Assembly: GCA_963753055.1 (NCBI GenBank)
Contig: CAVWAP010000004.1
Coordinates: 832,479 to 896,478, forward strand
DNA from: an uncultured Bacteroidales bacterium
GTDB lineage: Bacteria; Bacteroidota; Bacteroidia; Bacteroidales; B18-G4
DNA length: 64,000 bases
Reading direction: 5' to 3'
The notes under the pieces were generated by a model, which was given only the letters and a program-made list of their open reading frames with translations, was not told the origin of the DNA and ran no database searches. Shown piece after piece: positions 49,623-57,021 of the stretch. Numbering within the stretch: position 1 is the first letter of the stretch; each line of letters starts with the position of its first letter. Both the position numbers and the translations under genes were made by a program.

Positions 49623-51143
49623 ATGAAATTTATGTGTAAGGTAAAATATATCCTTCTTATGATCACAGGTTTATTGTTCTTTGACGGCAGCCATGCCCAG
49701 GATAAAGGTGATGAAATTGCCCTGCAAAACAGAAAAGCGGTAGTTGCCGGCCAGTTTTATGACTCAGACCCTACGACTTTAAAAGCCAGCTTGAAACAGA
49801 TGTTCTCTGAAGCAGAACCTAAAAAATATGATAATGTGAAAGCTATTATCACTCCGCATGCGGGTTATGTTTTTTCAGGTGAAGTGGCAGCATCAAGCTT
49901 CAACCAGGTTGATGAAGAGGTGAGATATGATAATGTTTTTATCCTGGCTTCCAGTCACCGCATTGCTTTTAATGGGGCATCTATCTATAATGCAGGACAT
50001 TATGAAACACCTCTCGGAACAGTTAAGGTAAACCTGAGTCTTGCAAAAGAGTTAATCAAAGAGAACAGGGTGTTTACTTTCCGGGATGATGCCCATAGCT
50101 CAGAGCATAGTCTGGAAGTCCAGCTACCGTTTTTGCAATACAAGCTAAAAAATGAATTTCAGATCATCCCGATAGTTATTGGTACGCAGGACCCGGCAAC
50201 CTGTAAGGATATTGCCAGGGTGCTTAAGCCATATTTTAAGGGCAATAACTTATTTGTGATCAGTACCGACTTCTCACATTATCCTTCATATGAAGATGCT
50301 CAGATTGTAGATCATCTTACTGCAGATGCTATCGTATCAAAAGATCCGGATAAATTTTTACTGACCCTTGATAATAATGCTTCAAAGGGTATTGACAACC
50401 TGGTTACCAGCTGCTGTGGCTGGAGTTCTACTCTGAGCTTGCTTTATATGGTTGCTGACAGCCCTGACTATGAGCTTCATAAAGTCCAATACAAAAACTC
50501 GGGCGATGCTCAGTATTATGGAGATAAAGACAGGGTGGTTGGCTATTATTCCATCGTCGTTACGGGTCCGCAGGGTCAGCCATCAGGTGATGCTGACTTT
50601 AATCTGTCGAAGCAGGATGAGGACGATCTTCTGGCTATTGCCAGGAAAACATTGGAAGAGTATATCAGGAATGACAAAATACCATCTATTGATGAAACCG
50701 CCCTCTCTTCAAATATTAAAGAGCATTGCGGGGCTTTTGTATCACTGTATAAAGACAAGCATTTGCGTGGCTGCATCGGCCGTTTCAAGGTTGAAGAACC
50801 ATTATACCGGATCGTTCAGCAAATGACCATCGCATCAGCTACACAGGATTACCGCTTCCCAAGGGTGAATGAAACTGAGATCGAAAACCTGGATATCGAA
50901 ATCTCTGTCCTGACACCTATGCGTAAAATCAGCTCTATCGATGAAATTGAAATGGGCAAACATGGGATCTATATTAAAAAAGGCAGCGCCTCAGGAACAT
51001 TCTTGCCCCAGGTAGGATCACAGACTGGCTGGACCAAGGAAGAATATCTTGGCCATTGTGCAAAGGACAAAGCAAGGATAGGGTGGGATGGATGGAAGGA
51101 TGCTGAAATTTATATTTATGAAGCACTCGTCTTCGGCGAATAA
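49623..51143 (+). CDS. fusion of AmmeMemoRadiSam protein B (Memo-like) and protein A (AMMECR1-like) with a Sec-type signal peptide
   Basis: 506 aa. MKFMCKVKYILLMITGLLFFDGSHAQ leader. Memo motifs AGQFYDSDP, ITPHAGYVFSG, HSLEVQLPFL. AMMECR1 motif CGAFVSLYKDKHLRGCIGRF. Confidence 0.85.
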   Translation: MKFMCKVKYILLMITGLLFFDGSHAQDKGDEIALQNRKAVVAGQFYDSDPTTLKASLKQMFSEAEPKKYDNVKAIITPHAGYVFSGEVAASSFNQVDEEVRYDNVFILASSHRIAFNGASIYNAGHYETPLGTVKVNLSLAKELIKENRVFTFRDDAHSSEHSLEVQLPFLQYKLKNEFQIIPIVIGTQDPATCKDIARVLKPYFKGNNLFVISTDFSHYPSYEDAQIVDHLTADAIVSKDPDKFLLTLDNNASKGIDNLVTSCCGWSSTLSLLYMVADSPDYELHKVQYKNSGDAQYYGDKDRVVGYYSIVVTGPQGQPSGDADFNLSKQDEDDLLAIARKTLEEYIRNDKIPSIDETALSSNIKEHCGAFVSLYKDKHLRGCIGRFKVEEPLYRIVQQMTIASATQDYRFPRVNETEIENLDIEISVLTPMRKISSIDEIEMGKHGIYIKKGSASGTFLPQVGSQTGWTKEEYLGHCAKDKARIGWDGWKDAEIYIYEALVFGE

Positions 51144-51185: not shown

Positions 51186-54044
51186 CTACCTCCCACATAT
51201 CCTGATATAAGGACAGTACTTACAATTTTCTAATTCTTCTGTTTGACTAAATGAATTGTTCGGATCGAAGATCTTTTCAAGGATTGAGATAATAACATTT
51301 ACCACAAGTGTTTTTTCTTCTTGATTGATTTCCAGTATCTTGCTCTTGAGTTTTATAGGCAGCAAACCCTGGCTTGATTTAGGCACAGATAGAATTCCTG
51401 CATTGCAGGTGACTGTTTTATCCGGATTGTTTTGGAGATAGAGGTAGGAGTATATTAATAATTGCAAAGCCTGGGCATAATTGGCATCATGCTCAAGGTC
51501 CTCCCAGTCCTTGATGTTCAAGTGTGTTGGATTGACCATCCCTGTTTTGTAGTCCATAACCAGGATATGACCATCCAGCTCATCTACCCTGTCAATAGTG
51601 CCTTTGATCAGGATTGGCAGTGAGCCATTTCCTGTTTCAATATTTATATTGCTGGTGAACCGCTCTTCCAGGTACCTGATGATCCACGACTGACTTTTAC
51701 CTCCGGTCTTATCGAAGATATCTGCATGCACCATGCGCTTGATCCACTGGACGGCTACCCGGGTGATAAGATAATTCTTGCCGTAGTCAGTATCACCGCC
51801 CGTATAATATTGCCGGAATGCAAGGTGGACTTCCTTTTCTATTTCCTTTTCGTTTATTTTAATCTTATCCCTTTGCAGTTGCTGATTGATGTATGGAGTT
51901 ATCAGCTTTTTGAGAGCCTGGTGGACAACGCTCCCCATAGTAGCAGCATCAATGCTTTCATCAATTTCCTCCGGCTCACTAAGCCCCAGTATTTCAGTGA
52001 AATAGAACTTAAGCGGACAGCGGATATACAGGTTGATAGAGCTTGGGGAAAAGCCTTTTTCAGCCTTGGATTTTAGTTTATCTATGATGCTGGCATCCTT
52101 TGGGATCTCTATTGGAGCTGGCAGTTCATTTCTTACATCGCTGCCTAGCAGATGCTCACTGATCTGGATCCCAGGATTATATTTTGGCATCTCATACATG
52201 AGTTGAGTGATAAACCTTGACTTATCACCTCCACCGAGTTCATCAGCTTCGGTGTTGTAGACCAGTGTGATGTCTTTTGCACGCTGGGTCAGCCGGTAAA
52301 AATGGTAAGCGAAAATTGCATCCTTTTCTCGATATGTGGGTAGCTTAAATTCCCTGCGAATATCAAACGGAATAAAACTTTGATAGTTCTTGCCTGTTGG
52401 CAGGATGCCCTCATTGGCAGATAACAGTATTATTTTTTCAAAGTCAAGCGCCCTGGTTTCCAGCATTCCCATGATCTGAATCCCTTCAAGGGGCTCTCCG
52501 TAGAAGGGCAGGGATGACATACTGAGAATATTGTTGAATACTTTTCGTAAAGTTTTTGTGCCTATTTCCAACTTGTAAGTTTCCAGGATATTAACCAGGT
52601 TTGTAATGGCTTTTGAGAAGGCATATAAGTATTCAAACTCAAGTTTCTGATCCTCCTCAGTCTCTTCCTTTTTCAATATAAAAACATCACGCAGGCATTG
52701 AATGATCTCCATCATACTTCTCATTGCTGACACGGGGTCCTCCCAGGTTCTAAAGATCAGTGAAAAGTATGCCATGGTATATGTACCGGCATTCTCCAAC
52801 TGGCCTAATAATGCCCCTGGTGTTATAAAAACCTGGTTGGATTGAGTAAGTTGCACAATGAATGATGATATCTCAAAGGCACTTTTATCAATAAGATCCA
52901 GTGACCTGGAATAAGGATGTTTTAGAATGTTGAGCAGGTCACGCGTTAAAAACCTTTCCTGATCATGATTCTGTAAACGCCTGATCCTTTCTGCATTCTC
53001 ATGCAATGACATGATAGATTCAAGAAGTGCATACAATGGAGTGTGCTCCAGCCCCAGGCCCATGGTAACATTGAATGCACGAACGCTGGAAGGAATGGAA
53101 TTCAACATGGGGAGAAGTAATGCCTCGTCTGCCAGTACAATGGCTGTACTGTAATGAGAAGCAGCATCCCCGGGTATCCCGGAAATCAATTCCCCTGTGA
53201 TCTTTACCTGCCCGGCGGTCTTTGGTACTCCAATAACCTCGATTTTTTTCTTGCCCTCTTTGAACGCATTATCAACCCAGTTGAACCCGGTGAGGTTCCA
53301 TTGTCTTTTATAATTCCGTAGAAACTTTCCTGCCTCCTGGATCTCATTGTCCATGTAATAAGCATCAGTATCCCACAGCACCTCTGCCTGCCCGGTCCTG
53401 ATCATGGTCCTGATTATCTTTTCTTCCGAAGCCGTTAATGCATTAAATCCAATAAAAATGATCTTATGGTATTTCTCTGTCCACCTTTGATCCGCAATAC
53501 TATCCGCGGCATTTTTAGAGACCAGGCCCTGGTAGCCTTGCTTTTGCTCCAGTAAATTACTGGTAAACAGTTTGTAGTAATCAATCAAAGAGTTAAAGAA
53601 TCGCAGGTAATTCAGTTCAAACTCAGTGAGCGGTTCCTCTCCCAGGGTCCATTTGTCTATTACTTTCGTTTCACTCAGGTAGGAATACAGACTGTCAGCC
53701 TCAACGAGATACTGGTCAATATCATTGAAATCAGCGATCAACACATTACCCCATCTGATAAACTGGTCAAAGGTCTGGGCATTCTCTTTTTCAATGTTTT
53801 GATGTACCCTGTACAATTGAAATATCAAGTTTGTATTGTCGATGATCCTCAGTCCTGATAACTGTTCAGCAACTTCTTCAATAGTATAAAAAACTGGTGC
53901 AAAAAACGGTTGATCTATATGCTTTGCGAGGTGGTTCTTGAGAAATAATGATGCCCTTTTGTTTGGCAGCACAATACATAAAGACGACAGCTGATCCTCA
54001 TAGTGCTTGAGTATAAATTCTGCCGATCTCTCTAAGAATGTCAT
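51186..54044 (-). CDS. AddB-like PD-(D/E)XK nuclease family protein
   Basis: 952 aa. C-terminal nuclease region with DRVDELDGHILVMDYKTG and terminal Cys cluster ...CKYCPYIRICGR, as in AddB/Cas4-type Fe-S nucleases. No adjacent UvrD/AddA-like helicase in the window. Confidence 0.65.
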   Translation of the reverse strand: MTFLERSAEFILKHYEDQLSSLCIVLPNKRASLFLKNHLAKHIDQPFFAPVFYTIEEVAEQLSGLRIIDNTNLIFQLYRVHQNIEKENAQTFDQFIRWGNVLIADFNDIDQYLVEADSLYSYLSETKVIDKWTLGEEPLTEFELNYLRFFNSLIDYYKLFTSNLLEQKQGYQGLVSKNAADSIADQRWTEKYHKIIFIGFNALTASEEKIIRTMIRTGQAEVLWDTDAYYMDNEIQEAGKFLRNYKRQWNLTGFNWVDNAFKEGKKKIEVIGVPKTAGQVKITGELISGIPGDAASHYSTAIVLADEALLLPMLNSIPSSVRAFNVTMGLGLEHTPLYALLESIMSLHENAERIRRLQNHDQERFLTRDLLNILKHPYSRSLDLIDKSAFEISSFIVQLTQSNQVFITPGALLGQLENAGTYTMAYFSLIFRTWEDPVSAMRSMMEIIQCLRDVFILKKEETEEDQKLEFEYLYAFSKAITNLVNILETYKLEIGTKTLRKVFNNILSMSSLPFYGEPLEGIQIMGMLETRALDFEKIILLSANEGILPTGKNYQSFIPFDIRREFKLPTYREKDAIFAYHFYRLTQRAKDITLVYNTEADELGGGDKSRFITQLMYEMPKYNPGIQISEHLLGSDVRNELPAPIEIPKDASIIDKLKSKAEKGFSPSSINLYIRCPLKFYFTEILGLSEPEEIDESIDAATMGSVVHQALKKLITPYINQQLQRDKIKINEKEIEKEVHLAFRQYYTGGDTDYGKNYLITRVAVQWIKRMVHADIFDKTGGKSQSWIIRYLEERFTSNINIETGNGSLPILIKGTIDRVDELDGHILVMDYKTGMVNPTHLNIKDWEDLEHDANYAQALQLLIYSYLYLQNNPDKTVTCNAGILSVPKSSQGLLPIKLKSKILEINQEEKTLVVNVIISILEKIFDPNNSFSQTEELENCKYCPYIRICGR

Positions 54045-54087
54045 AAAATTTATAATTCTGTATTGTGTATGTGCCGGTTTCGAGTTA

Positions 54088-54804
54088 TTACAATAGTGAT
54101 TCAGCCTTTTTGAGTCCCTCTGCTGTGCCTAAATCAACAAAATATCCTTCCGTATGCTCGAATCCTATAATCTTTTCCTGGTTTGCGATTTCAAGATACC
54201 TGTTAATAATACGGGCTGGCCTGGCCTCTTTAAGAAAATCAAAAATGCGTGGATCAATCACATGGATCCCACTGAAAGCTAATTTCTTAAGAGGAACAGC
54301 GGGCTTATCAACCAGGATGGTCTCTTTAGTCTTTTCGTTTAACCAACCATTCAATGTCATTTTCTCGTCAAACAGCAAGTACCGGGAAGAAGTCCTGTTT
54401 CTTACAGCCAGTGTTACCAACGGATTGTACTTTTGATGATCCTTGATCATCCTGGAAAGGTCGATATCTGAAAAGATGTCGACATTGTGGACCAGGAAGG
54501 GGCGGCTGCCATCAAGGAACCATTTTGCATTGGCAAGGCCTCCGGCAGTATCCAGCAGATCTTCATCTTCATGTGAAAAGGCTATTTCAATACCGAAATT
54601 GCTGTTCTCCTCTATATAAGCTTTGATTTGATCCGGGAAATGATGAATATTGATGATAATCTGATCAATTCCAATTGATTTAAGCCGTTGGATTAGCCTC
54701 CCCAACATGGGTATGCCTGATACAGCGATCAATGCTTTTGGCTTCTGGGCGGTCAAAGGCTGAAGCCTGGTACCCAAACCAGCTGCAAAGATCATCGCTT
54801 TCAT
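54088..54804 (-). CDS. murU: sugar-1-phosphate nucleotidyltransferase, MurU-like
   Basis: 238 aa. MKAMIFAAGLGTRLQPLTAQKPKALI signature G-x-G-T-R-L. Downstream of the AmgK-like kinase. Confidence 0.7.
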   Translation of the reverse strand: MKAMIFAAGLGTRLQPLTAQKPKALIAVSGIPMLGRLIQRLKSIGIDQIIINIHHFPDQIKAYIEENSNFGIEIAFSHEDEDLLDTAGGLANAKWFLDGSRPFLVHNVDIFSDIDLSRMIKDHQKYNPLVTLAVRNRTSSRYLLFDEKMTLNGWLNEKTKETILVDKPAVPLKKLAFSGIHVIDPRIFDFLKEARPARIINRYLEIANQEKIIGFEHTEGYFVDLGTAEGLKKAESLL

Positions 54805-54944
54805 GATGTTGTGGCTTTTTTGGGTTTACAAAGGTGTTTTTCTTTTCTGGCAGATGACCCGCATGACTTGCACTCGAACCTGATTGCTTTGGCTTCCTTT
54901 TTCCCCTTTTTCTTTTCTGCTTCCTTGCATTTCTTAGTTGCCAT
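54801..54944 (-). CDS. unannotated 47-codon Lys/Cys-rich small ORF
   Basis: MATKKCKEAEKKKGKKEAKAIRFECKSCGSSARKEKHLCKPKKATTS. Its TGA overlaps the murU ATG (ATGA, 54801-54804). Below the 60-aa cutoff of the ORF track. Confidence 0.4.
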   Translation of the reverse strand: MATKKCKEAEKKKGKKEAKAIRFECKSCGSSARKEKHLCKPKKATTS

Positions 54945-54967
54945 AGTTCTGGTCTTGTCTTATTTTC

Positions 54968-56392
54968 TTATGAGAGTTCTTTATGCACTAAATTAACCTT
55001 AACAGGGAAGTTTTGTTCAAGGAATGACTTTGTTTTTTCCGCACAGAATACAGACCTGTGCTGGCCTCCTGTACATCCAAAATTAACCATCAGATCCATA
55101 AAACCTCTTTGTAAATAATTATCAATGGATTGCCTGAGGATATCGTTTACTGAGCTTAGGAATCCATTCACCTCATCCTGTTTTTCAAGATAGTCCTGAA
55201 CAGGTTTATCCCGACCCGTTAACTCTTTGTATTCCTCTAACCTGCCTGGATTGGGTAAGATCCTGCAATCAAAAACAAAGCCACCTCCATTGCCCGACAT
55301 GTCTATCGGTATGCCCTGCTTATAAGAAAAACTATACAATGAAATTGTGAATATCTGCTTTTTGGATTCTTGATTGTCAGGATAACCCTTAAATTTCTTG
55401 GAGACTTCTGTTAATACCCTGTTCAGTTCAGGTAGCTTGATTTCAAGGTCAACCTGATTTAATAGCCAGTTAAAATTATTAACCGCATAGGGTATACTGT
55501 TGATAAAATGTGGTTTTCTCTCAAATAATCCTCTTAAACCATATGCCCCCATGACCTGCAGCATCCTGAGTAGCACAAATCCATAATAGTACTTTTTGAA
55601 CCTGTTATTGTCCAGGGGTATGATTTTGCCGGCCTGATCCAGGTAATAATCCAATAACTGCTCCCGGATTTCAAATGGAATATCTGCTTTAACCTGGAAT
55701 AGTAATGATGCCAGGTCGTACTGCAGGGGTCCCTTTCTTCCTCCCTGGTAGTCAATGAAATGTGGTTTTTCGTTCCGGATCATGATGTTCCTGGCCTGGA
55801 AATCCCTGTAAATGAAGAAATCTTTATTTTCTTCCAGTAAAAAAGAAATCAGGGCCTGAAAATCAGCCTCTAGAAGCTTTTCATCAAACGCTGTCCCGGC
55901 CAGCTTGAGGAAATTATACTTGAAGTAATTAAGATCCCAGGTGATTGACTGACGGTCAAATACCGGACTTGGATAGCAAACACTATAATCAAGGTCCTTG
56001 CCCGCAATAAGCTGAAATATGATAAGCTTATCAATCACTTGCTGGTACAAGCCTAACAAATTATTATCAAAGCCTTCGAGATTTTTTGAATTTAAAACCA
56101 GGTCAAAAAGTGTGAGATCGCCCAGGTCTTCTAATAAATAAACACCCTGTTCCAGGTCTTCCATGATAATTTCAGGAACCGGTAAACCATGCTTCATGAA
56201 ATGATGAGTAAAGGTAATGAATGCTCTGTTTTCCTGGGCATTAGGATGATATGCTCCTATGACAGTTTCCTGGTTATCAGACATCCGGAAGTACTCCCGG
56301 TTCGATCCCGATGTCTGCAACCTGTTCACCTGGGAGGGTTCATGCCCTTTCCAGCGTTGAAAAAGATCTGTGACTAATGCTTGTGATTCCAA
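54968..56392 (-). CDS. AmgK-like anomeric sugar kinase (APH fold) fused to a RapZ C-terminal-like domain
   Basis: 474 aa. N-part has SGSNREYFR, YRDFQARNIMI, FIDYQGGRKGPLQYDLASLL (AmgK pattern). Residues ~346-474 have SFSYKQGIPID...FVFDCRILPNPGR...LTGRDKPVQDYL...FGCTGGQHRSV. Compare E. coli RapZ SFGFKHGIPID...FVFDVRFLPNPHW...MTGLDKPVAAFL...IGCTGGKHRSV. Confidence 0.75.
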   Translation of the reverse strand: MESQALVTDLFQRWKGHEPSQVNRLQTSGSNREYFRMSDNQETVIGAYHPNAQENRAFITFTHHFMKHGLPVPEIIMEDLEQGVYLLEDLGDLTLFDLVLNSKNLEGFDNNLLGLYQQVIDKLIIFQLIAGKDLDYSVCYPSPVFDRQSITWDLNYFKYNFLKLAGTAFDEKLLEADFQALISFLLEENKDFFIYRDFQARNIMIRNEKPHFIDYQGGRKGPLQYDLASLLFQVKADIPFEIREQLLDYYLDQAGKIIPLDNNRFKKYYYGFVLLRMLQVMGAYGLRGLFERKPHFINSIPYAVNNFNWLLNQVDLEIKLPELNRVLTEVSKKFKGYPDNQESKKQIFTISLYSFSYKQGIPIDMSGNGGGFVFDCRILPNPGRLEEYKELTGRDKPVQDYLEKQDEVNGFLSSVNDILRQSIDNYLQRGFMDLMVNFGCTGGQHRSVFCAEKTKSFLEQNFPVKVNLVHKELS

Positions 56393-56520
56393 AAATCTGG
56401 GTGTTATTCAGGAACAAAAATAATGAAAAAGCACATTGATAGGGCCGGTATTATCGTAAGCAATAAACAAATTTCATTTATATTTGTCTACTTGATAAAA
56501 CAATCCTATAAACATTTCAC

Positions 56521-57021
56521 ATGGCAAAATCAGCAGTAGATATTCTTAAGGAAGCCATCCTGTTAGAAAGAAGAGGAAAGGCATTTTACGGTACCTGTGC
56601 AAAGCAAACACAGAGTGAAGCTGCCAGGAAAATCTTCCAGATGATGGCAGATGAAGAAGATGAGCACATTGAATTCTTATCCAAACAGTTTGCTCATTAC
56701 GAGAAAAACCAGGCATTCATGGAGAATGAAGTTACAGCTCATCCTGACGAGGATGCAGTTATGGAGATCCTATCAGAAGAGGTTAAGAAAGAGATCAGTG
56801 CTGCAAGCTTTGAAGCCGCAGCCATATCAGCCGCAATGGATTTTGAAACACGTGCGGTGAAGGTCTATTCAGACAGGGCAGAGCAGGCAACAGACCCAAA
56901 CGAAAAGCAAATGTATCAGATGCTGGCTGATTGGGAAAAGGGACATCATTTCTGGCTTCATAAGATCAATGAAGAATTGAAAGAACAAGTATGGTATGAC
57001 AATAATTTCTGGCCATTCTAA
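56521..57021 (+). CDS. ferritin-like di-iron (rubrerythrin-family) protein
   Basis: 166 aa four-helix pattern with E...EEDEH...E...EKGHH ligand spacing. Confidence 0.6.
   Translation: MAKSAVDILKEAILLERRGKAFYGTCAKQTQSEAARKIFQMMADEEDEHIEFLSKQFAHYEKNQAFMENEVTAHPDEDAVMEILSEEVKKEISAASFEAAAISAAMDFETRAVKVYSDRAEQATDPNEKQMYQMLADWEKGHHFWLHKINEELKEQVWYDNNFWPF

Follow-up and report, generated by a model that had tools for sequence, protein, structure and literature searches.

In Pseudomonas, anhydro-N-acetylmuramic acid (anhMurNAc) is recycled by four enzymes acting in turn: AnmK converts it to N-acetylmuramic acid 6-phosphate (MurNAc-6-P), MupP converts MurNAc-6-P to MurNAc, AmgK yields MurNAc 1-phosphate (MurNAc-1-P) and MurU yields UDP-MurNAc (PMC13691567, PMC13046382). 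RapZ of Escherichia coli and YvcJ of Bacillus subtilis have in common a C-terminal domain, RapZ_C, which shares in the control of cell-envelope precursor supply in Gram-negative and Gram-positive models. We analysed a stretch of 64,000 nucleotides from an uncultured Bacteroidales bacterium (contig CAVWAP010000004.1, positions 832,479 to 896,478; hereafter the window), in which these two systems meet: a single gene encodes an AmgK-like kinase fused to a RapZ_C domain, and a MurU-like gene lies downstream. This locus is very probably an amino-sugar salvage unit made of kinase, RapZ_C and MurU, in which RapZ_C is a conserved, separable pocket domain and not an RNase adaptor.

The interval 54088-56392 consists of three co-directional genes on the minus strand, encoding the fusion protein, a protein of 47 amino acids (aa) and the MurU-like protein. 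The features of the first and the last are the following.

54968..56392, minus strand: kinase-RapZ_C fusion gene, 474 aa, TTG start, stop codon 54968-54970 (open reading frame list, Pfam)
55385..56392, minus strand: kinase domain, residues 1-336, AmgK-like (Pfam APH, NCBIfam and 3csv matches)
55751..55804, minus strand: kinase catalytic loop R196-D197-F198...N202 with I213-D214 (Brenner-type motif and Mg-binding Asp)
55358..55384, minus strand: flexible linker, residues 337-345 (predicted local distance difference test, pLDDT, below 50 in the full-length model)
54971..55357, minus strand: RapZ C-terminal domain (RapZ_C), residues 346-474 (PF22740, structure match)
55280..55297, minus strand: Gly-rich insertion S366-G-N-G-G-G371, before F-V-F-D375-C376-R377 (alignment with E. 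coli RapZ)
55052..55075, minus strand: invariant loop C440-T-G-G-Q-H-R446-S447 (homologue alignment, models)
54088..54804, minus strand: MurU-like sugar-1-phosphate uridylyltransferase gene, 238 aa (Pfam, NCBIfam)

A RapZ_C domain attached to a kinase had been proposed in an initial annotation of the window, and a scan with domain hidden Markov models supported both halves of the proposal: Pfam APH matched residues 29-254 (E 3.3e-13) and PF22740 (RapZ_C) matched residues 349-473 (E 1.2e-34, 119.6 bits for a cut-off of 27). The translation contains the four RapZ motifs that had been listed (SFSYKQGIPID, FVFDCRILPNP, LTGRDKPV and GCTGGQHRSV), and the coordinates given for the domain, 54971-55357, were exact. 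An NCBIfam match to the C-terminal half of RapZ scored 113 bits, and phmmer aligned residues 346-458 with residues 158-265 of E. coli RapZ (5o5o, E 1.8e-15). Structure prediction agreed with this identification: residues 346-474 modelled alone (pLDDT 94.4) superposed on RapZ 5o5q and 5o5s with Z 21.0 and 20.8 (root mean square deviation 1.3 A over 122 and 121 residues, 36% identity), and the next-best structural match had a Z of 7.4. A search of the ESM Atlas with the C-domain, its own families being excluded, gave no usable match. The kinase fold is not that of RapZ, as had also been claimed, since it is of the APH type and the P-loop N-domain of RapZ (PF03668) was absent from the fusion protein, from the source genome and from all genomes of a sample of 201 good-quality genomes of the source phylum.

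In the full-length AlphaFold2 model of the fusion (44 homologues), the mean pLDDT was 90.9 and two well-folded domains were predicted, with a predicted template modelling score (pTM) of 0.73; the relative placement of the kinase domain and RapZ_C is therefore not fixed in the prediction. The linker, residues 337-345, is the sole segment with a pLDDT below 50, and it is there that the split forms described below are divided into two genes. A Foldseek search with this model returned kinase-fold matches only. Residues 27-307 matched an APH-like protein (PDB 3csv) in phmmer (E 1.6e-19) and in Foldseek (E 6e-14, TMt 0.79), and R196, D197, N202 and D214, which align with HRDFHAQN and IDFQD of 3csv, did not vary among 44 aligned homologues. 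Upstream of the TTG start, the frame stays open for only five more codons, and the in-frame ATG at M37 is too late to be the start, because L10, F11 and W14 are almost invariant among homologues.

The MurU-like protein was matched by Pfam NTP_transferase (PF00483, residues 2-235, E 2.4e-26) and keeps the N-terminal G-x-G-T-R motif (AAGLGTRLQP). Its best NCBIfam family was MurU NF045761 (148.4 bits, below the cut-off of 250), and it scored 88.9 bits with NF045697, below the cut-off of 370. The AmgK models likewise gave scores below their curated equivalog cut-offs (NF045759, 73.1 bits for 550; NF045698, 57.7 bits for 500). The AmgK and MurU identities given in the initial annotation thus hold for the fold, the catalytic loop and the pairing of the two genes, but not at the level of the curated equivalogs. 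MurU was the best family for the gene placed in the same operon, although this gene does not directly follow the kinase gene: the 47-aa open reading frame (ORF) occupies a gap of 163 nucleotides between them. Judging from the fold, the MurU partner and the precedent of Tannerella forsythia, the substrate of the fusion kinase is probably MurNAc and/or N-acetylglucosamine (GlcNAc).

Neighbourhoods were compared in 80 related loci. A MurU homologue was found by tblastn downstream of the kinase gene in 49 of them (in 47 on the same strand and within 342 nucleotides), and it was the sole widely conserved neighbour of the fusion gene. Where murU was not adjacent, a MurU-like gene was present elsewhere in all 27 such genomes tested (97-152 bits). 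In three loci (L006, L014 and L062, with L007 added by clustering), a gene for a YebC/TACO1-family regulator takes the place of murU after the kinase-RapZ_C gene, and murU is found elsewhere in the genome.

The fusion is widespread. In a search of a collection of 5.8 billion proteins, all 8000 scored candidates matched; among the best 120 matches, of 388-517 aa, all carried PF22740 and 118 carried PF01636 as well, and source names included 'phosphotransferase', 'RNase adapter RapZ' and 'RapZ C-terminal domain-containing protein'. In contigs representing one genome per species, 598 of the 600 pattern matches listed encoded a relative, and at least 598 species genomes, from several phyla, carry the fusion. 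The 80 loci came from Bacteroidales, Prolixibacteraceae, Saprospiraceae, Chitinophagales, Cyclobacteriaceae, Ignavibacteria, Calditrichia, Gemmatimonadota, Elusimicrobia, Acidobacteria, Lentisphaeria and others. An assembly chimera, which the initial annotation had named as a possible origin of the fusion, was rejected because the same architecture recurs in 118 of the 120 best matches and in these hundreds of genomes. In the phylum sample, 30 of the 201 genomes contained RapZ_C, and the genome of Bacteroides thetaiotaomicron, included in a control panel, was positive for PF22740 and negative for PF03668.

Looking at phylogenetic distribution, as the initial annotation had suggested, also revealed split and deleted forms. 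In three of the 30 carrier genomes of the phylum sample, the unit consists of three genes in the order kinase, RapZ_C, murU. In the first (L082), the kinase has 339 aa, RapZ_C (133 aa) begins at its own ATG 3 nucleotides past the kinase stop codon, and murU overlaps it by ATGA; the second (L083) encodes proteins of 338, 135 and 237 aa. In the third (L084; 327, 133 and 258 aa), the first two genes overlap by 35 nucleotides in different frames, and this split may be a sequencing frameshift. Free-standing RapZ_C proteins of the same subfamily, 131-146 aa long, are frequent; they were encoded on contigs longer than 15 kb in at least 22 cases, the longest contig being of 612 kb. One genome (G028; L085, contig G028:C44) encodes a 330-aa kinase, 40% identical, in a gene that overlaps murU by 4 nucleotides, and contains RapZ_C nowhere; this looks like a recent loss. 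Finally, in one family of the sample (f19), 38 of 39 genomes encode a distant unfused kinase of 26-34% identity that has no RapZ_C. A MurU-like gene directly followed the kinase gene in all three f19 loci examined (L089, L090 and L091, in G105, G165 and G045, respectively), where the kinase, in frames of 340-400 aa, was 24-28% identical over the tblastn match. RapZ_C, AnmK and MurQ were found in none of the 39 sampled genomes of this family, which provides a natural comparison group for the fused form. RapZ_C thus behaves as a third component that can be detached from the kinase-MurU pair: it is mostly fused, sometimes encoded by a separate gene, and lost in a few genomes.

We found nothing in the literature on an AmgK-RapZ fusion, and the available parts of PMC7670621, PMC10941766, PMC11957156, PMC13046382 and PMC13691567 make no mention of an extra domain on AmgK. 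The architecture is not new as data, because Pfam and NCBI protein names already catalogue this combination of domains; it gives the AmgK/MurU pathway a third, RapZ-derived component.

The pocket of E. coli RapZ comprises H190, T248, G249, H252 and R253, with C247 nearby (PMC5737377, PMC9841335), and in RapZ crystals sulphate or malonate is bound in the pocket loop by backbone amides and Arg (PMC5737377). In the phmmer alignment, H190, T248, G249, H252, R253, C247 and D182 map to G383, T441, G442, H445, R446, C440 and D375. Four of the five sulphate/malonate pocket residues, or five of six counting C247, are kept; the exception is H190, which is replaced by G383, itself invariant in the subfamily and followed by a near-invariant R384. 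Conservation was assessed in 117 fused and 63 free-standing homologues. Invariant or near-invariant in both groups were S354, F355, P362, D364, G369-G371, F374-D375-C376-R377, N381-P382-G383, G393, Y426, R429, F431, G439 to V448 and H470; the loop C440-T-G-G-Q-H-R446-S447 was invariant, and neither C440 nor C376 varied in any of the 180 sequences. In a set of 62 sequences of about 55% identity, 24 positions were invariant, among them C376, C440-T-G-G, H445-R446-S447-V448 and H470. C376, the second invariant Cys of the subfamily, corresponds to Val in E. coli RapZ, relative to which the domain also contains a five-residue Gly-rich insertion (SGNGG). In both models, the C440 loop sits between strand 433-440 and helix 446-461, and the invariant residues are at the C-terminal ends of four strands and in the loops that follow. 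Active sites of alpha/beta domains are usually found at the C-terminal ends of strands.

The same pocket residues contact backbone phosphates of the small RNA GlmZ in E. coli (PMC9841335), which would be consistent with the domain being an RNA adaptor that couples salvage to post-transcriptional control, as in enterobacterial RapZ. This is very improbable here. The C-terminal 16 residues, EQNFPVKVNLVHKELS, bear no resemblance to the basic consensus for RNA binding given in PMC7525490, and a tail with that consensus has been reported as restricted to Enterobacteriaceae (Khan et al., 2020, PMC7073468). Absent too is the N-domain, which takes part in forming the RapZ tetramer; neither GlmZ (RF00083) nor a GlmR/YvcK homologue (CofD family, PF01933) was found in the source genome, which is 94.3% complete, and no Rfam match was obtained in 53900-56700 at E <= 1. 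All known partners of RapZ and YvcJ are missing in this genome. The initial annotation saw a hint that RapZ_C is primarily a sugar-phosphate-binding module; the idea of a primarily metabolite-binding domain is not new, since metabolite binding was proposed as the primordial function of the domain by Khan et al. (2020, PMC7073468).

A C-x5-R-[ST] sequence in a strand-loop-helix arrangement is the form taken by the phosphate-binding loop of cysteine-dependent phosphatases. The segment C440-TGGQH-R446-S447, between a beta-strand and an alpha-helix, fits this signature. Our preferred reading, held tentatively, is that RapZ_C might hydrolyse an amino-sugar phosphate in a Cys-dependent reaction, the likeliest substrate being MurNAc-6-P. 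The invariant C-x2-G-x2-R-S loop would bind the 6-phosphate of the amino sugar, and RapZ_C would convert MurNAc-6-P, the product of AnmK, to MurNAc by means of the Cys. The fused kinase would then phosphorylate MurNAc at C1, and MurU would convert MurNAc-1-P to UDP-MurNAc. RapZ_C would thereby take the step performed in Pseudomonas by the unrelated HAD phosphatase MupP, and the net effect of the fusion would be that the phosphate moves from C6 to C1, with one ATP spent.

Several observations on RapZ homologues are precedents for such chemistry. In E. coli RapZ, the C247A and even the C247S substitutions abolish function; the authors suggest that the C247 thiol 'fulfils a specialised catalytic function', and glucosamine-6-phosphate (GlcN6P) looks 'chemically transformed' in a crystal of the RapZ C-terminal domain (CTD; Islam et al., PMC9841335). 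The CTD alone binds GlcN6P (PMC7073468). YvcJ has been described as having 'NTPase and phosphatase activities' (Foulquier et al., PMC7525490), and HpaP of Xanthomonas, which is counted among the RapZ/YvcJ homologues (Foulquier et al., PMC7525490; Khan et al., PMC7073468), is described as having ATPase and phosphatase activity (PMC9742497). Seven chains of DSP/PTEN-type Cys phosphatases were among the top 50 fold neighbours of the domain, with Z values (4.7-5.5) at a level that is common for unrelated folds.

The gene content of the source genome is also consistent with this role. AnmK (231 bits) and MurA are present and MurQ is not, the sole MurQ match being one of 35 bits inside a 616-aa frame; therefore, MurNAc-6-P needs a phosphatase to be used in this genome. 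No MupP equivalog was found in it (model NF009696; best score 28-29 bits for a cut-off of 359). In the phylum sample, AnmK was present in 137 and MurQ in 145 of the 201 genomes, and only 11 combined AnmK with the absence of MurQ; 10 of these 11 carry the RapZ_C module (G000, G015, G026, G034, G048, G078, G082, G137, G150 and G166, from at least seven families). The eleventh, G063, is an assembly in 170 contigs and the sole MurQ-less genome of 33 in its family. A match to the kinase domain was found in 69 of the 201 genomes: 30 have RapZ_C, of which 25 have AnmK, and 39 lack RapZ_C, of which none has AnmK (the 39 are G028 and 38 genomes of f19, and the adjacency of MurU was examined in four of them). 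Thus, all 25 genomes that combine AnmK with the kinase-MurU pair have RapZ_C, and in this sample kinase-MurU pairs without RapZ_C occur only in genomes without AnmK. These comparative data fit a role of RapZ_C in handling MurNAc-6-P but do not prove it. The closest MupP/Gph-like HAD protein of the source genome (G000:C1:884948-885583, L087), encoded outside the window, has W-D-W-N-G-T where D-x-D-G-T is expected, and may be inactive or atypical.

Other points weigh against a phosphatase. The phosphatase activities of YvcJ and HpaP are known to us per protein, not per domain, and in E. coli the domain is known for binding with high affinity and not as an enzyme. P-loop kinases (T4 polynucleotide kinase, gluconate kinase, PFK-2) and phosphofructokinase were fold neighbours with equal or higher Z values (5-7.4), so the similarity to Cys phosphatases amounts to a resemblance. 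No general acid residue was identified in RapZ_C, and in place of H190 of the E. coli pocket there is a Gly (G383). The MupP negative is weak, because none of the 31 genomes searched and none of the 14 control genomes, Caulobacter included, reached the cut-off, and the source genome encodes several generic HAD phosphatases that could supply the step. AnmK was not detected in 12 of 55 carriers (five of the 30 in the phylum sample, G074, G118, G056, G100 and G120, and seven of 25 from other lineages), and MurQ was present in 33 of the 55 (16 of 30 and 17 of 25, respectively); the module is therefore not tied to a MurQ-less pathway. The 25 carriers from other classes and phyla, which are metagenome-assembled genomes and may be incomplete, had AnmK in 18 cases and MurQ in 17, and only five had AnmK without MurQ. 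In addition, the AnmK contrast comes from about two independent lineages, f19 and G028, and the three RapZ_C-carrying relatives of G028 also lack AnmK. Lastly, because Bacteroidota are able to take up free MurNAc (PMC7670621), the kinase can sometimes do without a phosphatase.

Some of these points are better accommodated if RapZ_C is a non-catalytic sensor that, with this same pocket, recognises GlcN6P, MurNAc-6-P or a UDP-sugar and tunes the fused kinase allosterically. Salvage into UDP-MurNAc would then follow the state of the precursor pool, which corresponds to the 'feedback sensing' of the initial annotation. A sensor would tolerate the absence of AnmK in 12 of 55 carriers better than a MurNAc-6-P phosphatase would, and where MurQ is present, as in 33 of 55, the pathway branches and control would be of use at that point. 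Ligand binding is the sole demonstrated function of the domain, since the CTD of E. coli RapZ shows specific binding of GlcN6P and responds to it by itself (PMC7073468), and four of the five pocket residues are conserved. The kinase fold can do without the domain, which G028 has lost and the f19 pairs lack, and this is what one would expect if the domain were a regulatory addition. However, a loop that binds phosphate needs no invariant Cys, and yet both C440 and C376 are the same in all 180 sequences; in E. coli, even the C247S variant has no activity (PMC9841335); a free-standing gene of 133 aa between two enzymes resembles a pathway component more than an allosteric domain; and the disordered linker, with a pTM of 0.73 for a pLDDT of 90.9, means that no fixed docking on the kinase is predicted. 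We consider a sensor nearly as likely as the phosphatase.

Whether fused or split, the unit keeps the order kinase, RapZ_C, murU, stop codons often overlapping the start codons that follow, and the RapZ CTD dimerises in a way that requires D182 (PMC5737377, PMC7073468), the equivalent of which, D375, is invariant here. RapZ_C might accordingly dimerise, or dock MurU or another partner, as a scaffold for a kinase-uridylyltransferase complex channelling MurNAc-1-P. This seems improbable: conservation is concentrated in pocket loops at the C-terminal ends of strands and not over the surface, murU is unlinked in 27 of the 80 loci, and unfused kinase-MurU pairs of other lineages do without the domain (f19, and Pseudomonas and Caulobacter in the literature). 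The remaining probability, beyond the phosphatase, sensor, scaffold and RNA readings, is left for something else.

The phosphatase reading has a broader form, which is more doubtful than its application to this locus. Instead of a binding domain turned RNA adaptor, RapZ_C could be an ancient Cys-dependent amino-sugar-6-phosphate phosphatase always working beside a kinase, and the missing MupP analogue of Bacteroidota and allied phyla; the P-loop N-domain of RapZ and YvcJ would then be a non-homologous replacement of the kinase half. If this were true, RapZ and YvcJ would descend from a bifunctional phosphatase/kinase of cell-wall precursors, and there would be an explanation for why Cys247 is essential, for the 'chemically transformed' GlcN6P and for the phosphatase activity described for YvcJ and HpaP.

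Two further features belong to the locus.

54801..54944, minus strand: 47-aa Lys-rich ORF with four cysteines (MATKKCKE...FECKSCG...LCKP...), unannotated
56415..56422, minus strand: TATTTTTG, a match to the Bacteroidota -7 box TAnnTTTG, putative promoter box (read from the sequence)

The 47-aa ORF fills the gap between the kinase stop codon and the murU start, its TGA overlapping the murU ATG (ATGA). A homologue of 39-47 aa directly followed the kinase gene in 14 of the 80 loci, labelled Prolixibacteraceae (several), Draconibacterium, Mariniphaga, Carboxylicivirga, Saccharicrinis and unclassified Bacteroidales or Bacteroidota. Invariant residues were M1, C6, C25, C28, C39, K40 and P41; each invariant Cys was encoded by both TGC and TGT, the invariant Pro by all four codons, and pairwise differences at codon positions 1, 2 and 3 numbered 1558, 1222 and 2601. 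The ORF is therefore under selection as a protein, given the mixed synonymous codons and the excess of third-position differences. Of 1.84 billion cluster representatives, 423 matched its profile at E <= 0.001, mostly with lengths of 39-63 aa, and some relatives of 75-190 aa contain three copies of a Y-x-C-x2-C-G...L-C-x-P unit. No Pfam or NCBIfam model matched it at threshold, and there were only generic zinc-ribbon or rubredoxin-like hints; our guess from the residue pattern is that it might be a Cys4 metal-binding protein. In L006 and L007, the small Cys ORF lies between the kinase-RapZ_C gene and the YebC/TACO1-family gene.

The TATTTTTG box is located 23 nucleotides upstream of the TTG start of the fusion gene. 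TAnnTTTG is the -7 promoter consensus of Bacteroidota, and the box is presumably a promoter element. A promoter/terminator scan gave consensus-level matches only (13, for 7.0 +/- 2.9 expected) and no convincing terminator between the genes of the locus. A rubrerythrin/ferritin-like gene (56521-57021, plus strand) is divergent from the fusion gene, with which it shares a spacer of 128 nucleotides. Directly downstream of murU, a gene on the minus strand (51186-54044) encodes an AddB-like PD-(D/E)XK nuclease of 952 aa (PF12705, E 3.8e-32), the C-terminus of which is Cas4-like with Cys residues; it has no evident functional tie to sugar salvage, and a homologue was downstream in 11 of the 80 loci. 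Further along, 49623-51143 of the window (plus strand) encodes a fusion protein of the Memo-AMMECR1 type that has a signal-like segment at its N-terminus.

The role of the conserved pocket and of the essential cysteine is a question posed for RapZ and YvcJ (PMC9841335), and the unit described here makes it assayable. It offers a plain metabolic setting with few candidate ligands, free of the confounding effects of RNA, RNase E, a two-component system or GlmR. The natural split, fused and deleted versions allow comparison, and the unit is also present in B. thetaiotaomicron, where genetics is available. If RapZ_C were a MurNAc-6-P phosphatase, a missing step of peptidoglycan recycling would be filled across a large part of the bacterial tree, and the cell-wall labelling tools based on T. 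forsythia AmgK/MurU would merit a second look. If it were a sensor, the unit would be a simple system for defining the ligand specificity of the domain.

Compared with known systems, the locus most resembles in layout the AmgK-MurU pair of Pseudomonas putida and P. aeruginosa, also described in Caulobacter, Legionella and T. forsythia. An NTP_transferase with MurU as its best-matching family comes after an APH-fold kinase in which the catalytic loop is intact, the pair is conserved across phyla, and the source genome has the Pseudomonas-type set of AnmK without MurQ. It differs in the RapZ_C domain on or after the kinase, which proteobacterial enzymes lack, in scores far below the equivalog cut-offs (73 for 550, 58 for 500 and 148 for 250) and in that no MupP equivalog was found. 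The likeness to MupP itself, the HAD MurNAc-6-P phosphatase of Pseudomonas, would be one of role only, the supply of MurNAc for AmgK, a role otherwise unfilled in the 10 AnmK-positive, MurQ-negative carriers; fold and chemistry are unrelated to those of RapZ_C, and functional equivalence is hypothetical. With DSP/PTEN-type Cys phosphatases (C-x5-R), RapZ_C shares the C-x2-G-x2-R-S loop between strand and helix, the equivalent of which binds sulphate or phosphate in RapZ crystals, but the His that usually precedes the Cys is Gly in RapZ_C. Finally, in comparison with RapZ (E. coli YhbJ; 5o5o, 5o5q, 5o5s and 8b0i) and YvcJ, an unrelated kinase fold stands in place of the P-loop N-domain, and, relative to RapZ, H190 is replaced by Gly, a five-residue Gly-rich insertion and an extra invariant cysteine (C376) are present, and there is no basic tail. 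The C-domain is nevertheless homologous to that of RapZ and YvcJ (36% identity and Z 21 to E. coli RapZ), and C247, T248, G249, H252, R253 and D182 are kept as C440, T441, G442, H445, R446 and D375.

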